The notes beneath the pieces are model-generated. The model saw only the letters and a program-made list of their open reading frames with translations. It was not told where the DNA came from and searched no databases. Source: Patescibacteria group bacterium (GTDB lineage: Bacteria > Patescibacteriota > Patescibacteriia > UBA2591 > UBA6264). From it: DNA of 44,371 bases. The stretch covers positions 178,357 to 222,727 of the forward strand of contig JADHVF010000002.1 of NCBI GenBank assembly GCA_016784145.1, in the 5' to 3' direction. The translations under genes were made by a program, and so were the position numbers. This document shows positions 9,051-44,355 of this stretch, piece by piece. Positions within the stretch are counted from its first letter, which is position 1. Each line of letters opens with the position of its first letter.

Positions 9051-10646
9051 ATGATAAATAAATCCAAGACAAGACAATCTGTCATGTTAGTTATTCTTGA
9101 TGGGTGGGGAGTGGCCGAACCAAATCAAGGCAATGCTATTGAGTTAGCAAACACTCCTTTTTTTGATTTTTTGAAAAATAAATATCCATCCACAGAACTT
9201 TGCGCTCATGGCACTAGGGTTGGTTTACCCAAAAATCAAATAGGCAATTCAGAAGCAGGGCATTTGAATATAGGAGCAGGTAGAATAGTAGAGGATGACG
9301 CAGTTCAAATAAATAAAAGTATTAAAAACACCCGTTTTTTTAAAAATCCTGCTTTTGCTGAAGGCATCAGATATTTAAAAACCAATCAATCAAAAGTTCA
9401 TTTAATGGGGCTGATAACTGAAGAAAACAGTGCTCATTCTTCTCCAGAACATTGGCTGGCCATGATTAATCTTTTAAGAAAACAGAATATTAAAGAGGTA
9501 TTTCTTCATCTTTTTACTGATGGCAGGGATTCTCCACAACATCAAGCAGTCAAAATTTTAGAAAGGTTTGTTAAAGATTTTAAAGAAAATAATCATAATT
9601 CACATTTTAATAATAAAATAAAAGTTAGAATTGCTAGTGTTTGCGGGCGGTTTTATGCAATGGATAGAAAGAAAAAATGGGAGAGCACTGAACAAGCATA
9701 TGATTTATTAGTCTTGGGCAAGGGCAGAAAAGCCCGGACTGCTAAACAAGCAATTGTGCAGGCCTATAATAGAAATGAAACAGATGAATTTATTTCGCCC
9801 ACAGTAATAACTAACCATGTTAACAAGCCAGTTGCTTTAATAGATGATAATGATTTGGTTGTTTTCATGAACTTGCGTTCAGACAGGGCTAGAGAACTTT
9901 CCAAAGCATTTTGTCAGATAGAATTTAATAGCCAAAATCCAAATAGTTTTAAAAGAAAAAAAATAGTAGATGTTTTTTTTATAGCTTTAACTGATTTTGG
10001 TCCTGATTTAGGAGATATTAGAGTTGCTTATCCATCAATAGAAGTTAAGGATAGTTTACCAATTGCTTTAACTGGATTAACTCAGTTTTATATTGCTGAA
10101 ACAGAAAAATATGCTCATGTTACATTTTTCTTTAACGGAGGACATGCTGGCCAAGTAGCTAATGAAGAGCAAAAACTTATTCCATCTAAAGATGTTAAAA
10201 CCTATGATGTTGTGCCAAACATGAATTCAGATATTGTTTGTGATGAAATAATAAATAAAATTAAAGATGACCATCCTGATTTTATTGTTGTTAATTTTTG
10301 CGACCCAGACATGATAGGACATACAGGGAATTTGCAAGCAGGCATAAAAAGCATTGAACATCTTGATGTTGTTTTAAAAAAATTAGTTAAAAATAGTCAA
10401 GCAAATAATTATACTACCATTATTACGGCTGACCATGGCAATATAGAGAAAATGATAGACCTAGATACCAGTGAAATTCATACCAGTCACACGACAAATC
10501 CAGTACCATTTATTTTGGTTGATGAAAAATTCAAGACAATTAAATTAAGAAACAAGGGCAAGTTAAGTGATATTGCTCCGACTATTTTAGATATAATGAA
10601 GCAAGACAAACCAGCTAAAATGACTGGCAAAAGTTTGCTTATATAA
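9051..10646 (+). CDS. gpmI: 2,3-bisphosphoglycerate-independent phosphoglycerate mutase, paralog 1
   Basis: 531 aa with VILDGWG, GNSEAGHLNIGAGR (catalytic Ser), TDGRDSP, GRFYAMDRKKKWE, NLRSDRAREL, AETEKYAHVTFFFNGG, DPDMIGHTGN, TADHGN and HTTNPVPF. Confidence 0.85.
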   Translation: MINKSKTRQSVMLVILDGWGVAEPNQGNAIELANTPFFDFLKNKYPSTELCAHGTRVGLPKNQIGNSEAGHLNIGAGRIVEDDAVQINKSIKNTRFFKNPAFAEGIRYLKTNQSKVHLMGLITEENSAHSSPEHWLAMINLLRKQNIKEVFLHLFTDGRDSPQHQAVKILERFVKDFKENNHNSHFNNKIKVRIASVCGRFYAMDRKKKWESTEQAYDLLVLGKGRKARTAKQAIVQAYNRNETDEFISPTVITNHVNKPVALIDDNDLVVFMNLRSDRARELSKAFCQIEFNSQNPNSFKRKKIVDVFFIALTDFGPDLGDIRVAYPSIEVKDSLPIALTGLTQFYIAETEKYAHVTFFFNGGHAGQVANEEQKLIPSKDVKTYDVVPNMNSDIVCDEIINKIKDDHPDFIVVNFCDPDMIGHTGNLQAGIKSIEHLDVVLKKLVKNSQANNYTTIITADHGNIEKMIDLDTSEIHTSHTTNPVPFILVDEKFKTIKLRNKGKLSDIAPTILDIMKQDKPAKMTGKSLLI

Positions 10647-10655
10647 ATAAAAATT

Positions 10656-12239
10656 ATGATAACCAATTCTAATAAAATAAAACCAGTAGTTTTAATCATA
10701 TTAGATGGATTTGGGGTTGCTCCTCCTAGTCAAGGAAATGCAATCTCTTTAGCTAAAATGCCAGTTTTTAATCAATTAGTAAATGCTTATCCGTCCATGG
10801 TTATTCAGTCTTCAGGAGAGGCAGTTGGGCTTAGTTGGGGAGAGCCGGGAAATTCAGAAGTGGGACATCTTAACATAGGGGCTGGTAAAATTGTTTGGCA
10901 AAGCTTGCCCATGATTAACCAAGCAATCATTGATAATAGTTTTTTCAGCAATAAAGAATTTTTACAAGCAATTAATCATGCTAAAGAAAATAATTCAGAC
11001 CTTCATTTAATGGGGCTTATTTCTAATGGCAATATTCATTCTTCTTTAAACCATCTTTATGCTCTTTTAGAAATGGCTAAAAAAAATAACTTTACCAGAG
11101 TATATATCCATGCTATTTTAGATGGACGAGATAGTCCTAGAGATTCAGCCCAGAGATTTATTAACGATGTTTTAGATAAAATAAAATCAATTGGCGTGGG
11201 ACAGATTGCTACTTTATCAGGCAGGTTTTGGGCAATGGATAGAGACAATAGATGGGATAGAATAGAGGTTTCTTATTTGGCAATAGTTAAAGGGTTGGCA
11301 GAAAAAGAATACACAGACCCTTTGAAAGCAATTCAAGAGTCGTATAAACAAGAAGTTTACGACGAGCAATTAAAGCCAGTTGTTATTAAAAAAGAGATTA
11401 ACCAGGAGTCATTTAAAATAAAAGATAATGATGCAGTTATATTTTTTAATTTTAGAGCAGACAGGGCCAGAGAATTAACCAGGGCATTAGTTTTAGATGA
11501 TTTTAAACAATTTAAAACAATTAAAATAAAAAATTTATTTTTTTGCACCATGACAGAATATGAGCAGGATTTGCCAGTAAAAATTGCTTTTCCATCTGTT
11601 AGGATTGAAAATCCATTAGCAAAAGTAATCAGTGATAAGGGGCTAAAACAAATGCATATTGCTGAAACAGAAAAATATGCTCATGTTACATTTTTTTTAA
11701 ACGGGGGAAGGGAACAGGCTTTTGATGGCGAAGACAGGAAATTAATTCCTTCACCAGGAATTTCATCTTATGACGCCAAGCCAGCTATGTCAGCTTATGA
11801 AATTCTTCATCAAGCGCTTTTTTCTATTGATAGTCAAAAATATAAGTTTGTGGCAATTAATTTTGCTAACCCAGACATGGTCTCCCATACTGGAAATTTA
11901 CCTGCCACCATAGAAGCATTGGAATCATTAGATGAAATTCTGGGACAAATTGTAGATATTTCTTTAAAAAATAATACAGCTGTTTTGATTACGTCTGACC
12001 ATGGCAATGCAGAAGTTTTAGTTAATCTAAGGACAGGAGAGATAGACAAAGAACATAATAATAATCCAGTCCCACTTATTATTATTGATAATAGTTTAAA
12101 AAAAGAAGATGCTTTATTGAGCCAAGTAGACCTAAATACAATGACACCTAGTGGTGTTTTGGCAGATATTGCTCCTACAATATTAAAAATAATGGGCATT
12201 GATAAACCAGATGAAATGACTGGCACGCCTTTAATATAA
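10656..12239 (+). CDS. gpmI: 2,3-bisphosphoglycerate-independent phosphoglycerate mutase, paralog 2
   Basis: 527 aa with ILDGFG, GNSEVGHLNIGAGK, LDGRDSP, GRFWAMDRDNRWDR, NFRADRAREL, AETEKYAHVTFFLNGG, NPDMVSHTGN, TSDHGN and HNNNPVPL. It is closer to the canonical iPGM consensus than paralog 1. Confidence 0.85.
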   Translation: MITNSNKIKPVVLIILDGFGVAPPSQGNAISLAKMPVFNQLVNAYPSMVIQSSGEAVGLSWGEPGNSEVGHLNIGAGKIVWQSLPMINQAIIDNSFFSNKEFLQAINHAKENNSDLHLMGLISNGNIHSSLNHLYALLEMAKKNNFTRVYIHAILDGRDSPRDSAQRFINDVLDKIKSIGVGQIATLSGRFWAMDRDNRWDRIEVSYLAIVKGLAEKEYTDPLKAIQESYKQEVYDEQLKPVVIKKEINQESFKIKDNDAVIFFNFRADRARELTRALVLDDFKQFKTIKIKNLFFCTMTEYEQDLPVKIAFPSVRIENPLAKVISDKGLKQMHIAETEKYAHVTFFLNGGREQAFDGEDRKLIPSPGISSYDAKPAMSAYEILHQALFSIDSQKYKFVAINFANPDMVSHTGNLPATIEALESLDEILGQIVDISLKNNTAVLITSDHGNAEVLVNLRTGEIDKEHNNNPVPLIIIDNSLKKEDALLSQVDLNTMTPSGVLADIAPTILKIMGIDKPDEMTGTPLI

Positions 12240-15445: not shown

Positions 15446-17074
15446 ATGGAAAGAAATAAAATTTGGACAATTTTTGTTTTTATCATCGCTTTAGCTGTTT
15501 TATCTTTACTAATTGATATTCCTCAGTTGCCAGAATGGGTGCCAGGGAATAAGTGGTTTTCAAAACAAAAGATTCATTTAGGATTGGACTTGCAAGGAGG
15601 AGCTCAGTTAACCTATCAAATGAATCTTGATGATATCCCAAGCAAGGACAGGGCTTCTTCTATTGATGGTGTTAGAGATGTTATTGAACGGCGGGTTAAT
15701 GTCTGGGGAGTGTCAGAGCCAGTTGTACAAACAGCTAATGTAGGTAATTCTTGGAGATTACTGGTTGAGTTGCCAGGCATCAAAGATGTTAACAAGGCAA
15801 TTGCTATGATTGGAGAAACTCCTATTTTGGAATTCAAGGAGCAAGCACCAGTTAAAGAAATTACGGCAGAAGAAAAACAAGCAGTAAAAAATTTTAATGA
15901 AGAAGTTAAAGTCAAAGCAGACCAAGCATTAGTTATGGCTTTAAAAGGAGAACAAGAATTTTCAGAATTAGTAGCCGAGTTTTCTCAAGAGCCAGGCGCA
16001 GATGAAAACAAGGGAGTGCTTGATTGGTTTAAAAAAGGAGTCATGTTGCCGGAATTTGAAAAAGTTGTTTTCGAAGATTTGAAAGTTGGAGAGATTACAC
16101 AAGAGTTAGTAGAAACACAATTTGGATATCATATTATTAAAAAAATTGATGAAAGAACAAATGAAGATGGAGAATTAGAAGCAAAAGCTAGTCATATTTT
16201 GTTTTTTATTCAATCAGAGCAAACAATGATTAAGCAGCCAGAATGGAATTATACAGGGTTAACAGGCAAACAATTAAAAAGAGCTTATGTTACCTTTAAT
16301 TCGCAAACAAATGATCCAGAAATTTCTTTAGAGTTTAATAAACAAGGAACAAAATTATTTGGTGAAATTACAACTAGAAACGTTGATAAACCAGTTGCTA
16401 TTTTCCTTGATAATATTCCTTTAAGTATTCCAACAGTTAGAGAACCAATTACCACGGGCATGGCAGTGATTACAGGGAAATTTGCCTTAAAAGAAGCAAA
16501 GCAATTATCACAACGATTGGTGGCAGGTGCTTTGCCAGTTCCAATAGAATTGATTGGTCAACAGAACATAGGTCCTAGTTTGGGAAAAATTTCTGTCCAA
16601 GAAAGTTTTGTGGCTTGTTTGTTAGGTTTTTTGATTATTATAATTTTCATGATTTCTTTTTACAGATTTAGGGGATTGTTGGCTAGTTTTGCCTTGCTTA
16701 TTTATGCTTTAATTGTAATGGCTTTGTTTAAGTTAATCCCAGTCACTCTTACTTTAGCTGGAGTAGCTGGTTTTATTTTGTCTTTAGGCATGGCAGTTGA
16801 TGCTAATATTTTAATATTTGAACGATTAAAAGATGAGGAACGTATTGGCAAGCATATTTTTGCTGCTATAGATGACGGGGTTGCTCATGCTTGGACAGCT
16901 ATTAGGGATAGCAATATTACAACTTTAATTGTTTGTTTTATTCTTTATAGTTTTGGGACAGGTTTGGTAAAAGGATTTGGATTAACCCTTGGCATTGGTG
17001 TTTTGGTTAGCATGTTTACAGCTATTGTTGTCACAAAAACATTTTTAAAATTAACAGCTCGAGAACATGATTAA
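15446..17074 (+). CDS. secD: Protein translocase subunit SecD with inserted parvulin-type PPIase domain
   Basis: 542 aa. N-terminal TM segment, LGLDLQGG, P1 base ([24 protein letters not shown]), a C-terminal 6-TM SecD/F core (GPSLG..[27 protein letters not shown]). Residues ~140-256 match the PpiC/Par10 rotamase domain (see finding). Confidence 0.9.
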   Translation: [542 protein letters not shown]

Positions 17075-22441: not shown

Positions 22442-22834
22442 ATGCCTAGAAAAAAAGAATCAAGTTTAAAAAGTATTATTTCTTCTAAAATATTATTTTA
22501 TGTTTTAATATTATTTATTTTTATTTTAATGCTTTCCTTGATAAGGGAAGTTAATACAAAGATTTATTTAAAAAAAGAATTATCAAGAATACAGAGCCAA
22601 GTTGAATCATTAACAGCCAAAAATACGAATTACTTAGAAGAGATTGAAAAAAGTAAAACAGAATATTTTAAAGAAAAACAGGCTCGTTTAAAAATGGGAT
22701 TAAAAAAACCAGGCGAAGATGTTATAGTTATTGTTCCAGTAGAAGATGATGTTGATGAGCAAAATAAAGGTTTTTTTGAAAAACAAGCATCAAATATAAA
22801 AATCTGGTGGAATCTTTTTTTTAAACCCAACTAA
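22442..22834 (+). CDS. Septum formation initiator-like protein (FtsB/DivIC family; single TM plus coiled coil)
   Basis: 130 aa with a basic N-terminus and one TM segment (ILFYVLILFIFILMLSLI), followed by a heptad-like coiled coil (LKKELSRIQSQVESLTAKNTNYLEEIEK) and a conserved ..ARLKMGLKKPGEDVIVI.. block. Confidence 0.55.
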   Translation: MPRKKESSLKSIISSKILFYVLILFIFILMLSLIREVNTKIYLKKELSRIQSQVESLTAKNTNYLEEIEKSKTEYFKEKQARLKMGLKKPGEDVIVIVPVEDDVDEQNKGFFEKQASNIKIWWNLFFKPN

Positions 22835-22846
22835 TAAATATAATCG

Positions 22847-22901
22847 GTAATTAATAATCGCTAATTGGTAATTAATAATCGCTAATTGGTAATTAATAAG
22901 T
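22847..22901. repeat. 21-bp tandem repeat, about 2.6 copies (GGTAATTAATAATCGCTAATT)
   Basis: Copies at 22847-22867 and 22868-22888 are identical. A partial copy lies at 22889-22901. The reverse complement contains GATTATTAATTAC, which resembles the motif found in the B spacers of the adjacent array. Confidence 0.9.
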
Positions 22902-22921
22902 CTGCCAGGGCCCGATTTTTT

Positions 22922-23366
22922 ACTTAGGGGCAAGGCCCCTAAGTGAAGTAATTCAGGAGATTCGTGCTCAATATCTACTTAGGGGCAAGGCCCCTAAGTG
23001 AAATTGTTGATTATTGATTACTGATTATTGATTTGTAATCTACTTAGGGGCAAGGCCCCTAAGTGAAGTAATTCAGGAGATTCGTGCTCAATATCTACTT
23101 AGGGGCAAGGCCCCTAAGTAACTAAGGAAGAGTGAAATTGTTGATTATTGATTACTGATTATTGATTTGTAATCTACTTAGGGGCAAGGCCCCTAAGTAA
23201 CTAAGGAAGAGTGAAATTGTTGATTATTGATTACTGATTATTGATTTGTAATCTACTTAGGGGCAAGGCCCCTAAGTGAAGTAATTCAGGAGATTCGTGT
23301 TCAATATCTACTTAGGGGCAAGGCCCCTAAGTAACTAAGTGAAATTGTTGAAGGCCCCTAAGTAAC
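22922..23366. repeat. Mosaic array of 7 identical 23-nt GC-rich palindromes (ACTTAGGGGC-AAG-GCCCCTAAGT) plus one half copy, separated by two recurring spacer modules
   Basis: Palindromes start at 22922, 22977, 23042, 23097, 23176, 23255 and 23310, with a half copy at 23351-23366. Spacer A (32 nt) occurs three times, spacer B (42 nt) once and B' (56 nt) twice. No ORF of 60 aa or more lies on either strand. Confidence 0.95.
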
Positions 23367-23451
23367 TTGCCAGGGTCTGACTTAGGCAGTCCTGGTAGTT
23401 TGGCAGTTTCCTGTCAAGTTTTGCTCTAACAAGTTTTAATGGTGTGTTTTT

Positions 23452-23985
23452 ATGGATTACATAATTTTAAAATATATTAATAGCTTTGCGGGAAAATTTT
23501 TATGGCTTGATATGATAGGAATCATAATTACTGATTTTTTGATTTTATTCATGCCTTTGATTATTTTTCTTGTTTATTTTCTTTTTAATAAAAAAAGAAA
23601 AATTTTATATATTTTTCTTAAATTTATGCTTGGCTTTGTACTAGTAATGTCATTTGGTTATTTGATCTCGCAAATAATTGCTAGGCCCAGGCCATTTTTA
23701 GTTTATAGTGAGATTTATCAATTAACAAAATTTAAGATGCTTGTTCAGGATTTTTCGTTTCCATCTCATCATACTGCTAATTCTTTTATCATGGCCATTA
23801 TTGTTTTTTATGATTGGAAAAGATTTGGTTCAATTTTGTTAGTTTTTGCCTTTTTAATAGGTGTTAGCAGAGTTTTTGTGGGGGTCCATTATCCAACAGA
23901 TGTTTTAGGTGGTATTGTTCTGTCTATTATTTGTGCGTTATTAACCAACCATCTTTTATCTCAGCGTGTCAAAACCAGTCCCTAA
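23452..23985 (+). CDS. PAP2-family lipid phosphatase (undecaprenyl-diphosphatase BcrC-like)
   Basis: 177 aa with 5-6 TM segments. It has the acid-phosphatase motifs KX6RP-like (IARPRPF), PSHH and SRVFVGVHYPTD. Confidence 0.75.
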   Translation: MDYIILKYINSFAGKFLWLDMIGIIITDFLILFMPLIIFLVYFLFNKKRKILYIFLKFMLGFVLVMSFGYLISQIIARPRPFLVYSEIYQLTKFKMLVQDFSFPSHHTANSFIMAIIVFYDWKRFGSILLVFAFLIGVSRVFVGVHYPTDVLGGIVLSIICALLTNHLLSQRVKTSP

Positions 23986-24104
23986 CAAGACTAATAAGAG
24001 GGGCATCTTTCTTTTGGATAAGGATTCTCTAAGTACAAATCCATTGTCTTTTTCAATAGCCATTTTACGCATAAAATTTCGACCAACAAAGCAAAGGTGT
24101 TTAA

Positions 24105-24143
24105 AATAAAAAAAGGCTCTTATTTCTAAGAGCCTTTTGTTTT
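24105..24143. terminator. Bidirectional rho-independent terminator
   Basis: A perfect 12-bp stem (AAAAGGCTCTTA 24111-24122 / TAAGAGCCTTTT 24127-24138) with a 4-nt loop. An A-run lies upstream and a T-run downstream. It overlaps the stop codon of the minus-strand small gene. Confidence 0.7.
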
Positions 24144-24347
24144 ATCCACAGAATTTGAAATTAGCAATGGTCCGAGTATCAACATGAATAGCCCAATACA
24201 GAGCAATATAAACCCGCCTAATCCTACTATATGGAGTATTGCTAGTTTTCCTCCTTTTACAATTAGAATTACTCCTATTACAATAGAAAGAAGTTGGAGT
24301 AGTGTTTTGCTAATCTTTTTTTTCATGCTAGTAGCTTTTTTTCTCAT
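24126..24347 (-). CDS. Small hydrophobic protein (73 aa, two predicted TM segments)
   Basis: The ORF track gives 24126..24407. The preferred start is MRKKATSMKKK at 24347, because AGGAG lies about 8 nt upstream on the minus strand. The protein has a basic N-terminus followed by LLQLLSIVIGVILIV and GLGGFILLCIGLFMLILGPLLI. Confidence 0.5.
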   Translation of the reverse strand: MRKKATSMKKKISKTLLQLLSIVIGVILIVKGGKLAILHIVGLGGFILLCIGLFMLILGPLLISNSVDKTKGS

Positions 24348-24419
24348 TTTTTTCTCCTTTTTTAATGAGCAAAAATATTTTTCTTTATAATATATAGAGC
24401 ATGTCATAATTTTTAAATT

Positions 24420-24448
24420 TTGTCAATATAAAATTTTTATGCTAAAAT
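24420..24448 (+). promoter_or_regulatory. Candidate sigma70-type promoter (TTGTCA-17-TAAAAT)
   Basis: The -35 TTGTCA is at 24420-24425, followed by a 17-nt spacer and the -10 TAAAAT at 24443-24448. It sits about 45 nt upstream of the 58-aa ORF. Confidence 0.5.
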
Positions 24449-24493
24449 ATAAATAGATTTGAAAAATAAACAAGAAATAAAAAGGAGGTCAAG

Positions 24494-24670
24494 ATGGACG
24501 AAACAGAAAGAATGACAGAAATGAAAAAACTCGCAGCCGCCCTGGCATTGATATGTGGTTTTTTAAGTTGGTTATGGACATCTAATTCAATCATGGGATT
24601 AATTGTAATGATTCTGGCTTATCTGGTTATTGTTAAGTTGTCTAATAAGAAAAACCAAATAGTTGAATAA
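24494..24670 (+). CDS. Small hydrophobic protein (58 aa), below the ORF-track cutoff
   Basis: Manual translation gives MDETERMTEMKKLAAALALICGFLSWLWTSNSIMGLIVMILAYLVIVKLSNKKNQIVE. A strong RBS (AAAGGAGG) lies 6-7 nt upstream, with its own promoter and terminator. Confidence 0.55.
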   Translation: MDETERMTEMKKLAAALALICGFLSWLWTSNSIMGLIVMILAYLVIVKLSNKKNQIVE

Positions 24671-24677
24671 AAAAAAT

Positions 24678-24710
24678 AAGGGCTGTTACAAAAACAGCCC
24701 TTTAGTTTTG
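24678..24710 (+). terminator. Rho-independent terminator
   Basis: A 10-bp stem (AAGGGCTGTT 24678-24687 / AACAGCCCTT 24693-24702) with loop ACAAA, followed by TAGTTTT. Confidence 0.65.
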
Positions 24711-24758
24711 ACTTGATTATTTTTTTGTTTGTGTTATTATATATTTAGAAGTCATTGA

Positions 24759-24833
24759 CGCGGGGTAGAGCAATGGCAGCTCGTCAGGCCCATAACCTGA
24801 AGGTTGAAGGTTCGAATCCTTCCCCCGCAACCA
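24759..24833 (+). tRNA. tRNA-fMet (initiator, anticodon CAU), CCA encoded
   Basis: Manual cloverleaf: acceptor CGCGGGG/CCCCGCA with a C1xA72 mismatch (the bacterial initiator hallmark), D arm GAGC-AATGGCA-GCTC, anticodon arm TCAGG-CCCATAA-CCTGA, T arm GAAGG-TTCGAAT-CCTTC, discriminator A, then CCA. Confidence 0.85.
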
Positions 24834-24835
24834 TT

Positions 24836-24907
24836 GGCGGTGTAGCTCAGCGGTAGAGCAATGGACTCATAAGCCATGTGTCGCGGGTTCGACTCCCGCC
24901 ACCGCTA
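24836..24907 (+). tRNA. tRNA with CAU anticodon (elongator Met or lysidine-dependent Ile2), no encoded CCA
   Basis: Acceptor GGCGGTG/CACCGCT (G1-U72 wobble), TAGCTCAGCGGTAGAGC D arm, anticodon arm ATGGA-CTCATAA-GCCAT (A31/G39 mismatch), T arm GCGGG-TTCGACT-CCCGC. It starts 2 nt after the previous tRNA. Confidence 0.8.
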
Positions 24908-24938
24908 CTTTTTTATTTTAGCAAGAGAAAAAAATATA

Positions 24939-24979
24939 AAAACAACTCTACATTTAATACAAGAGTTGTTTTATTTTTA
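24939..24979. terminator. Bidirectional terminator between convergent tRNA transcription units
   Basis: An 11-bp stem (AAAACAACTCT 24939-24949 / AGAGTTGTTTT 24962-24972) with a 12-nt loop and T-rich flanks on both strands. Confidence 0.55.
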
Positions 24980-24990
24980 TATTTTAGTAA

Positions 24991-25076
24991 TGGTACCGGA
25001 GGAGGGACTCGAACCCTCAAGGACTAAGTCCATACGATTTTGAATCGCACGTGTATACCAATTCCACCACTCCGGC
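24991..25076 (-). tRNA. tRNA-Leu (anticodon CAA), type II with long variable arm, CCA encoded
   Basis: The reverse complement reads GCCGGAG-TG-GTG..CAC-..TGCGA-TTCAAAA-TCGTA-(variable arm TGGACTTAGTCCTTG)-GAGGG-TTCGAGT-CCCTC-CTCCGGT-A-CCA. It has a G1-U72 wobble. Its 5' end lies 1 nt from the topA stop codon. Confidence 0.85.
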
Positions 25077-25077
25077 T

Positions 25078-27192: not shown

Positions 27193-27203
27193 ATTTCAAT
27201 ATC

Positions 27204-27232
27204 TTGACTTTTTTAAATTTTTTTGCTATATT
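27204..27232 (+). promoter_or_regulatory. Candidate sigma70-type promoter (TTGACT-17-TATATT)
   Basis: The -35 is at 27204-27209 and the -10 at 27227-27232. It lies in the divergent topA / 94-aa ORF intergenic region. Confidence 0.5.
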
Positions 27233-27297
27233 ATTTAATAAGTAGTGATAAGTAAATTTATTAAATCACAAAACAAAAAAAAACACAAGGAGGAGAG

Positions 27298-27582
27298 ATG
27301 TTTAAAATTCAAAAAGTGATAAGAAATGATAATGGAATAGTTACTGATATAGAGACGGTTTTTAATGATTACCTCACAGTTAGATGCGTGTTTGATTATG
27401 AGAAGGAAAAAGTAGTAATTGCTTCAAGAGTTGTTCCTGATGAAGTTTTGCAGAGTTATGATGTTCTCAAGCTTACGCCAAAACAAAAAGGTGAATTATA
27501 CAAAGTTTGTAGAGGAATTTTTGAAGCAAGCTTTAAAGAAAAGAGCAATCCAGCCCAATTAGATTTATTTCTTAACACTTAA
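27298..27582 (+). CDS. Hypothetical soluble protein (94 aa), no recognisable family
   Basis: A near-consensus RBS (AAGGAGGAGAG) sits immediately upstream of the ATG. The ORF has its own promoter and terminator candidates. There is no TM segment and no motif I recognise. Confidence 0.5.
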   Translation: MFKIQKVIRNDNGIVTDIETVFNDYLTVRCVFDYEKEKVVIASRVVPDEVLQSYDVLKLTPKQKGELYKVCRGIFEASFKEKSNPAQLDLFLNT

Positions 27583-27592
27583 TCCAAACAAT

Positions 27593-27626
27593 AGGCGCTC
27601 ATTTAAAAATGGGCGCTTTGTCTTTT
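27593..27626 (+). terminator. Candidate rho-independent terminator
   Basis: A 9-bp stem (AGGCGCTCA 27593-27601 / TGGGCGCTT 27610-27618, with two G-U pairs) and an 8-nt loop, followed by TGTCTTTT. Confidence 0.45.
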
Positions 27627-27652
27627 CACCCAAAACAATGTATAATAAAAAT

Positions 27653-34458: not shown

Positions 34459-35079
34459 ATGCCAATAAAGTCAAAAGAAAAAAAGAAAACAACCAAGCAA
34501 GTAACAAAACCAGTTAAAAAAACTGTGTCAAAAACTGTTGTCAAGAAAGTTGCTCCAAAGAAAAAAGTTGTGAAAAAGGTTGTAAAGAAAGTTGCTCCAA
34601 AGAAAAAAGTTGTGAAAAAGGTTGTAAAGAAAGTTGCTCCAAAGAAAAAAGTTGTAAAAAAAATTGCTCTAAAGAAAACAATCAAACAAGAACAAGTAAT
34701 TTGGGCTACTGGCAAGAGAAAAACATCTATTGCTAGAGTTATATTTTTTTCAAAAGGAAGCGGGGAAATATATGTAAATAAACAACCGTATAAAAAATAT
34801 TTTAATATATTAGAATTAAAAAACAAAGTTGTTTCTCCGATTGAATTATTAAAACAAGCAGATAATTTCCAGTTTAAAATAAAAGTTCAAGGAGGAGGAC
34901 AAACAGGACAAGCAGATGCTATTCTTTTAGGAATATCAAGAGCATTAATTAAATTTAACCCTGATTGGAGAAAAGAGCTAAAAGCAGCCGGATTTTTAAA
35001 AAGAGATGCTAGAAAAAAAGAAAGAAAAAAACCAGGATTAAAGAGAGCTAGAAGAGCTCCTCAATGGAAGAAGCGTTAA
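34459..35079 (+). CDS. rpsI: 30S ribosomal protein S9 with ~78-aa Lys/Val/Ala/Pro-rich N-terminal extension
   Basis: 206 aa. The C-terminal ~128 aa form a canonical S9 (GKRKTSIARV.., GGGQTGQADAILLGISRAL, GFLKRDARKKERKK.GLKRARRAPQW.KR). The N-terminus is a low-complexity repeat. Confidence 0.9.
   Translation: MPIKSKEKKKTTKQVTKPVKKTVSKTVVKKVAPKKKVVKKVVKKVAPKKKVVKKVVKKVAPKKKVVKKIALKKTIKQEQVIWATGKRKTSIARVIFFSKGSGEIYVNKQPYKKYFNILELKNKVVSPIELLKQADNFQFKIKVQGGGQTGQADAILLGISRALIKFNPDWRKELKAAGFLKRDARKKERKKPGLKRARRAPQWKKR
34549..34674 (+). repeat. In-frame 42-bp tandem repeat (14 aa, VAPKKKVVKKVVKK), two identical copies plus a diverged third
   Basis: Copies at 34549-34590 and 34591-34632 are identical. 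The third copy (34633-34674) diverges after about 23 nt. Confidence 0.9.
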
Positions 35080-41980: not shown

Positions 41981-42054
41981 TCCGGGGTCGTCTAATGGCA
42001 GGACGTCAGGTTTTGGTCCTGAAAATTGGGGTTCGAGTCCCTGCTCCGGAGCCA
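41981..42054 (+). tRNA. tRNA-Gln (anticodon UUG), CCA encoded
   Basis: Acceptor TCCGGGG/CTCCGGA with the U1-A72 pair and G73 discriminator typical of bacterial tRNA-Gln. D arm GTCT-AATGGCA-GGAC, anticodon arm TCAGG-TTTTGGT-CCTGA, T loop TTCGAGT. Confidence 0.85.
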
Positions 42055-42273: not shown

Positions 42274-44355
42274 ATGAAAGCAACTGAAATAAAATTAATA
42301 GATTTTCTTAAAAAATCGCCCCAGTTTGTTATTCCTATTTACCAACGTACTTATAGTTGGAACGAGAAGCAGTGTTTACATTTATGGGAGGATATTTTGC
42401 GTACAGGGAGTAACAAAAATATTGCCGCGCATTTTATTGGCTCTATCGTTTATGTAGAAAAGGGCCTTTATTCTGTTGCGGGTCAATCACAACTTCTTGT
42501 GATTGATGGTCAACAAAGACTTACCACAATAACTTTACTAATTGAGGCACTTGCCCGCACTCTCAGAGGAAGTGAGCCGATAGAAGGATTCTCAGAAAAA
42601 GTGCTTCGTGATTATTACCTTCTCGATCCGCGTGAAGAAGGAGAAAAGAAGTATAAACTCATTTTATCTCAAACTGATAAAGCGTCATTAACAGCATTGC
42701 TTGATAACAGTCCTGAGCCGAAAGATTATTCTGTACGAATTAAAAAAAATTTTGAATTTTTTATAGATAAAATCGATGAAGAGAAAAATAACCTTGCGTC
42801 GATATGCAAAGGCTTAGCAAAGCTTATTATTGTAGACATATCTCTTAGTCGTGATCAGGATAATCCTCAACTCATCTTTGAAAGCTTAAACTCGACAGGA
42901 CTTGAGCTAAGCCAGGCAGATTTGATTCGTAATTATATTTTAATGGGATTAGAGCCCGAGCTTCAGTTTAAATTGTACAACCAATATTGGCGACCGATGG
43001 AAATAGATTTTGGCCAGAAGGGTTACGCCTCATACTTTGATCGTTTTATGCGACATTATCTTACCGTGAAGACAAGTGTTATTCCTAAAGAGCGCGAGGT
43101 ATACGAGGTATTTAAACAATACGCGCATTCCCAAAAAGATGCGGGGGTTGAAGTTCTTGTCGCTGATATTCGAGTTTTTGCTGAATATTATTGTGCCATG
43201 GTTCTTGGTACTGAAACCGATTCAGAGCTAAAAATGGCCTTTCATGACTTTCTAGAGTTAAAGGCAGATGTTGCATTTCCATTCTTGTTAGAGCTTTATC
43301 ATGATTATGATAAGAAAAATCTTTCTGCGCATGAGTTGCTAAAAATAGTGCGCCTGATAGAGAGTTATGTATTCAGGCGCGCCATATGTAGTATACCAAC
43401 CAACTCGATGAATAAGACTTTTAGCACCTTTTCTCGTAATCTCAAAAAGGATCGCTATTTAGAGAGCGTGCAAGCAACATTTCTACTTCTTCCATCTTAT
43501 AGGCGTTTCCCTGATAATGAAGAGTTCAAACGAGAAATTAAGCTTAAGAATGTTTATAACTTCCGTAGTCGGAGTTATTGGTTGCGCCGATTAGAAAATT
43601 ATGAAAGAAAAGAACGCGTACCTGTAGTCGAGTATACTATTGAGCACATTATGCCACAAAATGAAAATCTATCAGCTGAGTGGAAATCAGAGCTTGGGTC
43701 TGAGTGGGAACGTATTCAAAACACTTATCTGCATACATTGGGCAATCTCACTCTAACCGGCTATAACTCTGAATATAGCGATAGGCCGTTTATGGAAAAA
43801 CGAAATATGAAAGGAGGCTTTGCGGAAAGCCCATTACGATTGAATAAAGGGGTTGCTGAAAAAGAACATTGGACTGAACAAGAAATATTAAATCGAGCAG
43901 AGGTATTATCGGAACAGGCAACCAAGGTTTGGTTTGCCCCCACATTGGAACGTAGTATTTTAGATGCATACAAACCGAAGGCAGAAGTGACAGAGTATAG
44001 CATAGAAGACCATCCTTATCTATCAACAGAGCCCACGAGAGGTTTATTTGAAGAATTTCGTAAACAGGTTAAAGCACTAGATCCGTGTGTAACTGAGACA
44101 TTTTTAAAACAGTATGTAGCATATAAGATGGAAACTAATTTTGTTGACGTTGTTCCTCAGGCAAAGCGATTACGTCTTTTGTTGAACATTGCATTTTCGG
44201 AAATTAATGATCCAAGGGGAATTTGTAGAGATGTCTCAGCGATTGGTCGATGGGGTAACGGCGATGTCGATGTCGGCCTTTCAGTGATCGAGGACATGGC
44301 TTATGTTATTGGATTGGTTCGTCAAGCATTTGAGAAGCAAATGGGAAATGGATAA
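42274..44355 (+). CDS. DUF262/DUF1524 two-domain nuclease, GmrSD-like (type IV modification-dependent restriction family) with an extra C-terminal domain
   Basis: 693 aa. The N-terminal DUF262/ParB-like NTPase signature is IPIYQRTYSW.., FIGSIV, VIDGQQRLTT and FESLNSTGLELSQADLIRNY. The C-terminal His-Me finger (DUF1524) signature is YTIEHIMPQN....LHTLGNLTLTGYNSEYSD. The last ~120 aa form a separate module. Confidence 0.8.
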   Translation: MKATEIKLIDFLKKSPQFVIPIYQRTYSWNEKQCLHLWEDILRTGSNKNIAAHFIGSIVYVEKGLYSVAGQSQLLVIDGQQRLTTITLLIEALARTLRGSEPIEGFSEKVLRDYYLLDPREEGEKKYKLILSQTDKASLTALLDNSPEPKDYSVRIKKNFEFFIDKIDEEKNNLASICKGLAKLIIVDISLSRDQDNPQLIFESLNSTGLELSQADLIRNYILMGLEPELQFKLYNQYWRPMEIDFGQKGYASYFDRFMRHYLTVKTSVIPKEREVYEVFKQYAHSQKDAGVEVLVADIRVFAEYYCAMVLGTETDSELKMAFHDFLELKADVAFPFLLELYHDYDKKNLSAHELLKIVRLIESYVFRRAICSIPTNSMNKTFSTFSRNLKKDRYLESVQATFLLLPSYRRFPDNEEFKREIKLKNVYNFRSRSYWLRRLENYERKERVPVVEYTIEHIMPQNENLSAEWKSELGSEWERIQNTYLHTLGNLTLTGYNSEYSDRPFMEKRNMKGGFAESPLRLNKGVAEKEHWTEQEILNRAEVLSEQATKVWFAPTLERSILDAYKPKAEVTEYSIEDHPYLSTEPTRGLFEEFRKQVKALDPCVTETFLKQYVAYKMETNFVDVVPQAKRLRLLLNIAFSEINDPRGICRDVSAIGRWGNGDVDVGLSVIEDMAYVIGLVRQAFEKQMGNG

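Follow-up and report, generated by a model that had tools for sequence, protein, structure and literature searches.

The gap between divIC and the PAP2 gene

The window analysed here is a 44,371-nt stretch of the chromosome of a Patescibacteria (CPR) bacterium, in which secA, secDF, GT4, murJ, lepA and divIC form a co-oriented gene string that continues, beyond a gene-free gap, with a PAP2-family phosphatase gene in the same orientation and then a terminator. The gap is flanked upstream by a divIC/ftsB-like gene (22442-22834, + strand; Pfam DivIC, E = 8e-12) and downstream by the PAP2 gene (23452-23985, + strand; Pfam PAP2, E = 2e-21), whose N-terminus aligns with relatives from residue 1. This PAP2 envelope gene is undecaprenyl-pyrophosphate-phosphatase-like. 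The original prediction had the size of the gap right, at 617 bp, but its extent of 22841-23400 is here corrected to 22835-23451. Within the window, where the median intergenic distance is 10 nt, the gap is the longest stretch without a gene or tRNA. It holds no ORF of at least 50 aa and has stops throughout six frames, in agreement with its earlier description as non-coding.

The gene string is closed by a canonical bidirectional intrinsic terminator at 24111-24138, which serves as a model of the real terminators in this genome. Canonical terminators lie at 24111 and 24678, with no terminator-like site inside the gap. The palindromes described below were considered as intrinsic terminators and rejected, as they have no U-tract on either strand and the real terminators here look different. 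A replication origin, dif site or parS site was likewise rejected, given that matching motifs are absent and that the cumulative GC skew is monotonic through the gap, without a switch.

A mosaic of one palindrome and two recurring spacers

The repeated element of the gap, hereafter P, is ACTTAGGGGCAAGGCCCCTAAGT, a 23-nt perfect GC-rich palindrome with a 10-bp stem and the loop AAG. Seven exact copies occupy 22922-22944, 22977-22999, 23042-23064, 23097-23119, 23176-23198, 23255-23277 and 23310-23332, all at the starts originally predicted. None would be expected by chance (no copy in 100 shuffles of the window). The loop reads AAG on the + strand in every copy, and matches on the minus strand differ solely at the three loop bases. 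The GC content of P is 57% against 31% for the window, and the predicted folding energy of a single P hairpin is -16 kcal/mol in RNA and -9.8 kcal/mol in single-stranded DNA. The distances from one P to the next are irregular (55, 65, 55, 79, 79 and 55 bp). All copies except the first are preceded by TCT, creating CTAC on the + strand; GTAG thus lies 3' of P on the opposite strand, which is the reverse of the REP tag geometry.

Only two spacer sequences separate these palindromes, each present three times, and their lengths are 32, 42 and 56 nt. Spacer A (32 nt) was read at 22945-22976, 23065-23096 and 23278-23309 on the + strand, the third copy being a C>T variant (At). Spacer B (42 nt), which contains two 14-bp TGATTATTGATT units, lies at 23000-23041, and its extended form B', in which the 14-nt prefix AACTAAGGAAGAGT precedes B, lies at 23120-23175 and 23199-23254 (all + strand), the latter within an exact 79-bp tandem duplicate. 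These recurrences stand as first reported, and the description of the array as a mosaic of one palindrome and two recurring spacers is upheld by our reading. In TRF the array scores 245-370, at periods of 55, 79 and 120, of which the 79-bp one matches at 100%; both of the predicted exact 79-bp duplications were confirmed. A single substitution was found over ~460 bp of repeats. The last unit of the array (23333-23363, + strand) is, by direct reading of its junctions, deletion-derived: AACTAAG followed by TGAAATTGTTGA runs into the 3' half of P (AGGCCCCTAAGT), and its B' portion lacks GAAGAG and the 3' part of B'. The half copy of P that had been predicted is thereby confirmed, at 23352-23363.

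Upstream of the array is an AT-rich head (22841-22902, + strand) of three tandem 21-bp repeats (TAATYGGTAATTAATAATCGC; period 21, 97% matches) that carry the 13-mer GTAATTAATAATC. This motif is the inverted partner of a motif in the B modules, GATTATTGATTAC, the two agreeing at 12 of 13 bases, and both are unique to the gap. Inverted sharing of a motif between head and B modules is therefore upheld, although two details of the original description required revision: TGATTATTGATT alone occurs twice per B whereas the exact 13-mer GATTATTGATTAC occurs once, and the inverted motif in the head is exact in only two of its three repeats. The head is linked to the first P by a left junction (22903-22921, + strand) consisting of a TGCCAGGG box and CCCGATTTTTT. 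The TGCCAGGG...ACTTAGG pair that starts at 22903 recurs at 23368 in the unique tail (23364-23451, + strand), which extends to the PAP2 start codon, such that the boxes bracket the array as predicted. TGCCAGGG also occurs within coding sequence, about as often as GC-rich 8-mers typically do in this DNA, and only its pairing with ACTTAGG at both array ends is notable. The tail can form an imperfect hairpin at 23370-23395 and another at 23400-23417, and as a whole it folds no better than its shuffles (z = -0.8).

The junction in relatives

The lepA-divIC-PAP2 synteny is conserved among relatives, in which the divIC-PAP2 junction measures 2 nt (L136, L142, L143 and L144) or 33 nt (L140, L141 and L145), or is split by an inserted gene (L138, L139, L147 and L146). 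A hairpin array is present at this junction in none of the recovered relatives, indicating that the 617 bp are a lineage-specific insertion. The closest relative by LepA shares 63% identity and a DivIC homologue search returned the query alone, leaving no sister species for covariation analysis. The head weakly resembles the 33-nt divIC-PAP2 spacer of L140, with 9 of 500 shuffles reaching its score. Relative L138 has a yjbQ gene, and a decayed copy of such a gene was considered as the source of the gap; this candidate was rejected because tblastn gave no match. Separately, another Patescibacteria lineage (L136, L137, L142 and L143) holds an identical palindrome at two to three separate intergenic sites.

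Copy number across assemblies

The remaining contigs of the locus all belong to a single, almost clonal population (0-5 mismatches per 10-20 kb), and they differ in how much of the array they resolve. Five Logan contigs terminate within the 21-bp head repeat, and the array is interrupted by a 100-N gap in three ENA scaffolds, two of them with six P copies plus the gap (L121 and L154) and one with four plus the gap (L122). The two lowest-coverage assemblies (L123 and L128) have four copies. The number of P copies is thus not stable across assemblies, going from 4 (with or without a gap) through 6 plus a gap to 7. From either end the assemblies reproduce the same order of modules, whereas the count of seven rests on the window's assembly. 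Coverage was 2.7-4.6x in the assemblies with the short versions, a depth at which collapse is possible, and the four-copy alleles may reflect assembly collapse rather than true variation.

These observations bear on whether the array is itself an assembly artefact, its order and number having been produced when a de Bruijn graph was traversed wrongly over a real locus that is shorter. Short-read contigs do break at the head, three scaffolds are N-gapped, two low-coverage assemblies show four copies, and the exact 158-bp B'-P tandem is longer than typical reads resolve. Against this, the arrangement head-P-A-P ... P-At-P-tail was recovered independently from at least five samples, and at least six P copies are present in two scaffolds from different samples. 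Moreover, L121 becomes identical to the window sequence once its 100-N gap is replaced by B-P, and the shortest version still has four P copies in an insertion of 404 bp. An artefactual origin is consequently extremely unlikely.

Resemblance to CRISPR and to dispersed palindrome families

The array looks like a CRISPR locus, and it could be imagined as a mini or orphan array that has a hairpin of 23 nt as its repeat and relies on cas genes elsewhere in the genome. Seven identical palindromic direct repeats, spaced regularly with 32-56 nt between them, follow an AT-rich 'leader', the GC-rich stem is similar to the hairpins of type I repeats, and the repeat length lies at the lower limit of the ~23-50 nt of identical CRISPR repeats. 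In contrast to the diverse spacers of near-constant length that characterise CRISPR, the array has its two recurring sequences of unequal length, and spacer B is of low complexity and related to the 'leader' in inverted orientation. No cas gene was detected by Pfam or PADLOC in the window and its extensions. The spacer cores have no exact match in IMG/VR, blastn of the gap against a phage collection returned nothing, and against plasmids it returned just ~31-bp low-complexity matches to module B (E ~0.01), leaving no protospacer in these collections. An Rfam search of the gap, envisaged with the original prediction, remained empty at gathering thresholds and listed nothing beyond noise at E <= 10, with no CRISPR-DR match. 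The array instead has the published features of false CRISPRs, being a head-to-tail TRF array without spacer diversity and without cas (PMC5294841). The CRISPR reading is thus already largely refuted, and we regard it as barely credible; the original prediction had rightly called the array a CRISPR mimic.

The same prediction labelled the array as REP/BIME-like, which our searches do not sustain. The DNA of this genome that was searched comprises the window and ~11 kb more (~55 kb in total, or ~5-9% of a typical CPR genome). No further copy of P was found in it, even allowing 3-4 mismatches, nor any source of the head, A, B' or tail. Exact P gave zero matches in IMG/VR and JGI metagenomes. A loop-degenerate pattern, CTTAGGGGCNNNGCCCCTAAG, matched at least 120 unrelated GC-rich hairpins in genome contigs, mostly of Oscillospiraceae and Treponema, and exact P was not among the matches listed.

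It is nevertheless conceivable that the array is one locus of a dispersed REP/BIME/REPIN- or STAR-like family, which recombination or a RAYT-type transposase would have spread. Its palindrome is GC-rich while the genome is AT-rich, and the array is situated intergenically 3' of a gene, with linkers recurring as in BIME-2 and STAR; the other Patescibacteria lineage mentioned above does hold an identical palindrome at two to three intergenic sites; and the ~55 kb searched leave room for a low-copy family (STAR: 13-21 loci). However, more than 100 REPs are scattered through the intergenic regions of a genome (PMC2817692), a density that in a ~1-Mb genome would predict ~5 copies in ~55 kb. All seven P copies share one orientation whereas BIMEs alternate (PMC2817692), and P is perfect and untagged whereas REPs are imperfect palindromes with a conserved 5' GTAG or CGTC tetranucleotide (PMC3733652). 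In the window and its extensions no gene for a Y1 transposase or RAYT was found, and the STAR signature T(G/A/T)TGTTG(G/T)GGCCC(C/A) is absent from the gap even at 2 mismatches. Membership of such a dispersed family is therefore unlikely, and within the ~55 kb searched the array lacks the defining features of REP/BIME.

Origin and possible role of the array

We propose, as the probable explanation, that the gap represents a non-coding minisatellite specific to this lineage, which was inserted between divIC and the PAP2 gene of a Patescibacteria chromosome. A P-bearing segment would have inserted or arisen at a junction originally of 2-33 nt, and would then have been amplified and reshuffled via slipped-strand mispairing or unequal recombination between identical P copies. 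P hairpins on single-stranded DNA would favour both processes, which could have generated the units of 55, 65 and 79 bp, the exact 79-bp duplicates and the micro-homology deletion junctions. Such a process would also produce a copy number that short-read assemblies cannot fix. The exact duplicates and recurring near-identical units agree with the recent slippage or unequal recombination that was originally suggested, and the array probably expands and contracts by slippage between identical hairpins. The inverted motif shared by head and B modules and the 21-bp phasing of the head are unexplained by simple slippage, and they could hint at a protein-binding or structured-RNA role.

One form of such a role is a protein-binding site on DNA, whether centromere-like as in sopC, iteron-like or an operator, at which a dimer would bind the 10+3+10 palindrome and/or GTAATTAATAATC. 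The geometry of P is that of a dimer operator, the head period of 21 bp corresponds to ~two helical turns, and six inverted occurrences of the 13-mer fall in the B modules, with both motifs confined to the gap. The F-plasmid sopC, which consists of tandem repeats with a palindrome in each, provides a precedent. However, the irregular spacing of P gives no constant helical phase, and no DNA-binding, par or rep gene lies near the gap, where the small ORFs are membrane-like. Moreover, no relative conserves the array, and the site lies inside a string of housekeeping genes, neither on a plasmid nor at an origin, as the GC skew also indicates. We therefore regard a dedicated binding site as very unlikely.

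At the RNA level, the array may be imagined as a structured ncRNA gene, or as a multi-hairpin RNA that is processed to small RNAs or sponges an RNA-binding protein. The + strand folds at -240 kcal/mol (z = -12.4), 47 kcal/mol better than the - strand, pairing between head and B via G-U pairs is possible in + strand RNA only, and AGGAG and AAGGAAG motifs are present in modules A and B'. The z-scores, however, are a trivial outcome of repeated perfect palindromes, and the tail is not significantly structured. The gap matches no Rfam family, there is no promoter and terminator bracketing a discrete gene, and the single clonal population sampled offers no covariation. A structured or processed ncRNA is thus very unlikely.

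Returning to the minisatellite, the co-oriented flanks, the lack of a U-tract after P and the position of the first canonical terminator past PAP2 together make transcription of its + strand most likely. Judged from this arrangement of sequence features, the array is probably co-transcribed as an intercistronic spacer or a PAP2 5' leader. Each P in a divIC-PAP2 mRNA would form a -16 kcal/mol hairpin, and these hairpins could be passive barriers to 3'-exonucleases or processing sites, while the array would uncouple PAP2 translation from divIC. Such roles would resemble those shown or proposed for REP, BIME or STAR-type intergenic hairpins. An RNA-level role of this kind could exist, though it is a weaker proposal than the account of the origin, and the array may equally well be near-neutral. 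A more ambitious reading, to which we give little credence, holds that the array is a selected module of this CPR lineage, either an intercistronic multi-hairpin RNA with CRISPR-like processing that is independent of Cas or a DNA scaffold for proteins (P and GTAATTAATAATC), with changes in copy number that would tune PAP2 expression. In its RNA form, a host RNase or some other RNA-binding protein would recognise the P hairpins and cleave them.

The practical value of the array is modest. It is a clean example of a false CRISPR, one that would be called by CRISPR finders and on which short-read assemblies break, and it should be flagged as such; strains of this population could also be tracked with it as a VNTR marker. 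In addition, it illustrates that CPR genomes, however compact, tolerate a repeat insertion of 0.4-0.6 kb in a conserved string of envelope and division genes. Were the array to modulate expression of PAP2, CPR would provide a case of regulation by a minisatellite.

Comparison with known repeat systems

Intercistronic minisatellites of the MIRU/VNTR type were reportedly described in M. tuberculosis by Supply and colleagues in 1997. MIRUs are tandem units of 40-100 bp between operon genes, variable in copy number and dispersed at ~40 loci, and their small ORFs preserve translational coupling. The array likewise consists of tandem units of that size class between operon-like genes, but it has no chain of small ORFs.

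With the REP/BIME/REPIN elements of proteobacteria (PMC2817692, PMC3116915, PMC3733652) the array shares clustered extragenic palindromes, alternating linkers, flanking genes that are probably co-transcribed and a plausible mRNA-hairpin effect. Those elements are dispersed, imperfect, tagged, orientation-alternating and RAYT-associated, and none of these properties holds for the array as far as the ~55 kb searched show. The likeness to STAR is in architecture only: in both cases, short GC-rich direct repeats alternate with recurring spacers in the intergenic DNA of an AT-rich genome, the spacers being at least 40 bp in STAR (Cramton 2000; Purves 2012, PMC3532100) and 32-56 nt here. STAR is a 14-nt direct repeat at many loci, whereas the array is built on a 23-nt perfect palindrome at one locus in ~55 kb. 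In S. aureus, STAR is transcribed, its function is unknown and its loci expand and contract (Purves 2012, PMC3532100).

Published classes include both false-CRISPR tandem repeats and GC-rich, STAR-like repeats whose spacers recur (PMC5294841, PMC3532100). The false-CRISPR repeats of Zhang & Ye 2017 (PMC5294841) share with the array a repeat-spacer appearance, spacers that are not diverse, the lack of companion cas genes, detection by TRF and a potentially hypermutable copy number. The array differs in having a perfect GC-rich palindrome and a mosaic of three units (55, 65 and 79 bp) as opposed to one monotonous unit, and in belonging to an uncultivated Patescibacteria bacterium. Among these systems, the array stands as an ordinary unstable tandem repeat, real but CRISPR-like in look only.

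Genomic setting and array structure

By its LepA (nearest match 63% identical among 5.8 billion proteins), the organism belongs to the Patescibacteria; a search for DivIC homologues returned the query itself as the sole match. The window (31% GC) carries a co-oriented housekeeping string of secA, secD carrying a PpiC insert, secF, a GT4 glycosyltransferase gene, murJ, lepA and divIC, followed by the gap and a PAP2 phosphatase gene. A canonical bidirectional terminator (24111-24138) lies downstream of PAP2, and beyond it are two small membrane-protein ORFs, three tRNAs, topA, murG, murC, hrcA-grpE-dnaK and more. Consecutive ORFs in the window are separated by a median of 10 nt, and the gene-free gap (22835-23451, 617 bp) is its largest stretch without a gene or tRNA; as the original prediction held, the gap is non-coding, with stops throughout all six frames.

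The array consists of seven exact copies of the palindrome P (ACTTAGGGGCAAGGCCCCTAAGT), found at each predicted start (22922, 22977, 23042, 23097, 23176, 23255 and 23310) and in none of 100 dinucleotide-preserving shuffles. P orientation is uniform in all copies, since minus-strand matches deviate only at the three loop bases. The predicted spacer modules were recovered as well: A (32 nt) at 22945 and 23065 and, with a C>T change, at 23278; B (42 nt) at 23000; and B', which is B preceded by AACTAAGGAAGAGT, at 23120 and 23199. The array ends in a truncated B'-like piece with the 3' half of P (23333-23363), a TGCCAGGG...ACTTAGG direct repeat brackets it, and both claimed 79-bp exact duplications hold; Tandem Repeats Finder gave periods of 55, 79 (100% matches) and 120.

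The claim of a motif doubled in B and inverted in the head, the three 21-bp AT-rich repeats upstream of the P copies, stood in part. Each B module holds the 12-mer TGATTATTGATT twice and the exact 13-mer GATTATTGATTAC a single time; of the three head repeats, two carry the inverted 13-mer exactly and the third does not. This 13-mer, in inverted orientation and with 12 of 13 bases matching, is common to the head repeats (GTAATTAATAATC; period 21 bp) and the B modules (GATTATTGATTAC; period 14 bp), and both versions are confined to the gap. The relationship may reflect an inverted duplication, for example by a template switch at the palindrome. The two motifs can also pair in + strand RNA via G-U pairs, and an RNA-pairing or a protein-binding function may be considered as minor rivals.

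Elsewhere in the window, SecD (15446-17074) contains, between its N-terminal P1 segment and P1 head, an inserted peptidyl-prolyl isomerase (rotamase) domain of the PpiC type, an architecture found also in a relative (L138, 316-1992; LepA 62%). Two paralogues in tandem downstream of pgk and eno (9051-10646 and 10656-12239) encode cofactor-independent phosphoglycerate mutase (iPGM), and a convergent tRNA-Leu (CAA) comes after a tandem tRNA-Met (CAT) pair (24759-24833 and 24836-24908, 2 nt apart). The ribosomal protein S9 gene (34459-35079) encodes an N-terminal extension of ~84 aa before the S9 domain (residues 85-206); the extension consists of a 42-bp tandem repeat (34517-34678; ~3.4 copies, 93% identity) whose translated units are Lys/Val-rich. 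Next to tRNA-Gln (41981-42054), in a region of up to 39% GC, is a defence gene of the GmrSD/type IV restriction-like kind (42274-44355; PADLOC Orf5/HEC-06, E = 6e-188); its position on separate short contigs in ENA assemblies, with coverage below that of the main contig, suggests a strain-variable island.

Copy number across assemblies

A single near-clonal population (0-5 mismatches per 10-20 kb) is the source of all other contigs with the locus. Five Logan contigs end 34-41 nt past the divIC stop, within the 21-bp head repeat, and three ENA scaffolds (L121, L122 and L154) have 100-N gaps within the array; six P copies are still visible in each of L121 and L154, and L121 equals the window once B-P fills its N-gap. 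At least five samples reproduce the element and the order of its modules as read from either end; the count of seven P copies, and especially the exact 158-bp B'-P tandem, is provisional. The two lowest-coverage assemblies (4.6x and 2.7x) hold only four P copies, as P-A-P-B-P-A-P and P-A-P-B'-P-A-P, which may be real alleles or collapsed assemblies.

Origin of the array

The lepA-divIC-PAP2 order is kept in relatives, with a tight junction. The divIC-PAP2 distance is 2 nt in L136, L142, L143 and L144 and 33 nt in L140, L141 and L145; in L138, L139 and L147 the site is occupied by a yjbQ gene that directly adjoins the genes on both sides, and in L146 by a reverse-strand gene. PAP2 alignment with relatives starts at residue 1, and a repeated hairpin array was found at none of these loci. 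Given the tight junctions and the lack of an array in relatives, the entire 617 bp represents a lineage-specific insertion into an otherwise compact gene string. Amplification of what was left of an ancestral short spacer may have produced the AT-rich head, for which the local alignment with the L140 spacer is only suggestive (score reached in 9 of 500 shuffles).

In this lineage the TPP_enzyme_C gene that follows PAP2 in relatives (window 23986-25077 against L136 and L138) and the dprA gene that adjoins topA (27193-27637, same comparison) are absent; in their place are small membrane-protein ORFs (24126-24407, minus strand; 24494-24670, plus strand) and a 94-aa ORF with no assigned function (27298-27582). 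These differences show a neighbourhood remodelled further than by the repeat insertion alone. Another Patescibacteria lineage (LepA 63%) has one perfect palindrome, AAAAGTTTGGTGGC-TGA-GCCACCAAACTTTT, at two to three separate intergenic sites (L136 1225-1251 and 5231-5261; L137 852-878, 4858-4888 and 5924-5958; likewise L142 and L143), which looks like a dispersed bidirectional terminator because A and T runs flank it.

The array bears the predicted signature of slippage or unequal recombination, since its copies are near-identical (one substitution in ~460 bp), its units are bounded by P, its module variants differ by events at short homologies (B' is B with a 14-nt prefix) and the TGCCAGGG...ACTTAGG direct repeat brackets it. 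In the last unit, B' lacks GAAGAG, and a deletion between TTGA and AGG has removed its 3' part together with the 5' half of P. Such an array would result if the 23-bp P copies repeatedly underwent slipped-strand mispairing or recombined unequally. Palindromes and repeats stimulate slippage, and P hairpins on single-stranded DNA (-9.8 kcal/mol) would be expected to promote it.

Transcription and possible role

The gene string around the gap is probably co-transcribed. Read-through on the + strand, with each P folding as an RNA hairpin (-16 kcal/mol), would be expected because a terminator scan of the gap found none, the genes on either side share one orientation and the unique sequence ahead of PAP2 is only 88 nt long. 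No U-tract follows P on either strand; the genuine terminators (24111 and 24678) consist of an A-run, a stem and a T-run. By analogy with REP, BIME and STAR elements, the hairpins could plausibly shield upstream mRNA from 3' exonucleases or serve as processing sites, and the array could abolish the translational coupling that divIC and PAP2 show in relatives. These observations fit a near-neutral array equally well, and we consider it very improbable that the array is a selected module regulating PAP2 at the RNA or DNA level. The very negative fold z-scores of the gap were rejected as a sign of a specific RNA, being a trivial result of repeated perfect palindromes.

Relationship to known repeat systems

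Neither P nor its relaxed core GGGGCNNNGCCCC occurs elsewhere in the window or in ~11 kb of extra sequence from this genome, where the array modules likewise have no source; this inspected DNA, ~5-9% of a typical CPR genome, rules out REP-like density and is compatible with a few more loci. IMG/VR and JGI metagenomes contain no exact P, the spacer cores have no exact match in IMG/VR, blastn of the gap against phage and plasmid collections gave no meaningful match, and Rfam, including CRISPR-DR families, gave none for the gap. The genes nearby (window and extensions) include none for a Cas, Y1 transposase, Rep or Par protein. Among the matches listed for genome contigs from a species-representative collection (L001-L120), a CTTAGGGGC-NNN-GCCCCTAAG hairpin recurs at high frequency in GC-rich genomes of Oscillospiraceae, Acutalibacter, Christensenellaceae and Treponema, often in the form GGGGTTCTTAGGGGC...GCCCCTAAG with loops that vary; it is a dispersed palindrome family unrelated to P.

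Membership of REP/BIME, suggested originally, fails on copy number and dispersal, on orientation and on the GTAG/CGTC tag (PMC2817692, PMC3733652), and no RAYT is among the genes of the window and extensions. A CRISPR array does not fit, as the spacers lack diversity and are unequal in length, and neither cas genes (window and extensions) nor protospacers (IMG/VR, phage and plasmid collections) were found, which bears out the view of the locus as a CRISPR mimic. Of the published categories, the nearest are Zhang & Ye's "false-CRISPR" classes, namely tandem repeats as well as STAR-like elements (PMC5294841); the locus fits the former by its Tandem Repeats Finder periods, its lack of spacer diversity and the absence of cas genes from the window and extensions. 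STAR elements are GC-rich short repeats with recurring spacers of at least 40 bp, intergenic and multi-locus, whose loci expand and contract and which have no known function (PMC3532100); the array shares this architecture, whereas the STAR signature is absent from the gap and the array occupies one locus in the inspected DNA. The array is a real, statistically unambiguous, lineage-specific hairpin minisatellite in a Patescibacteria chromosome, and it belongs with the false-CRISPR and STAR-like intergenic tandem repeats.
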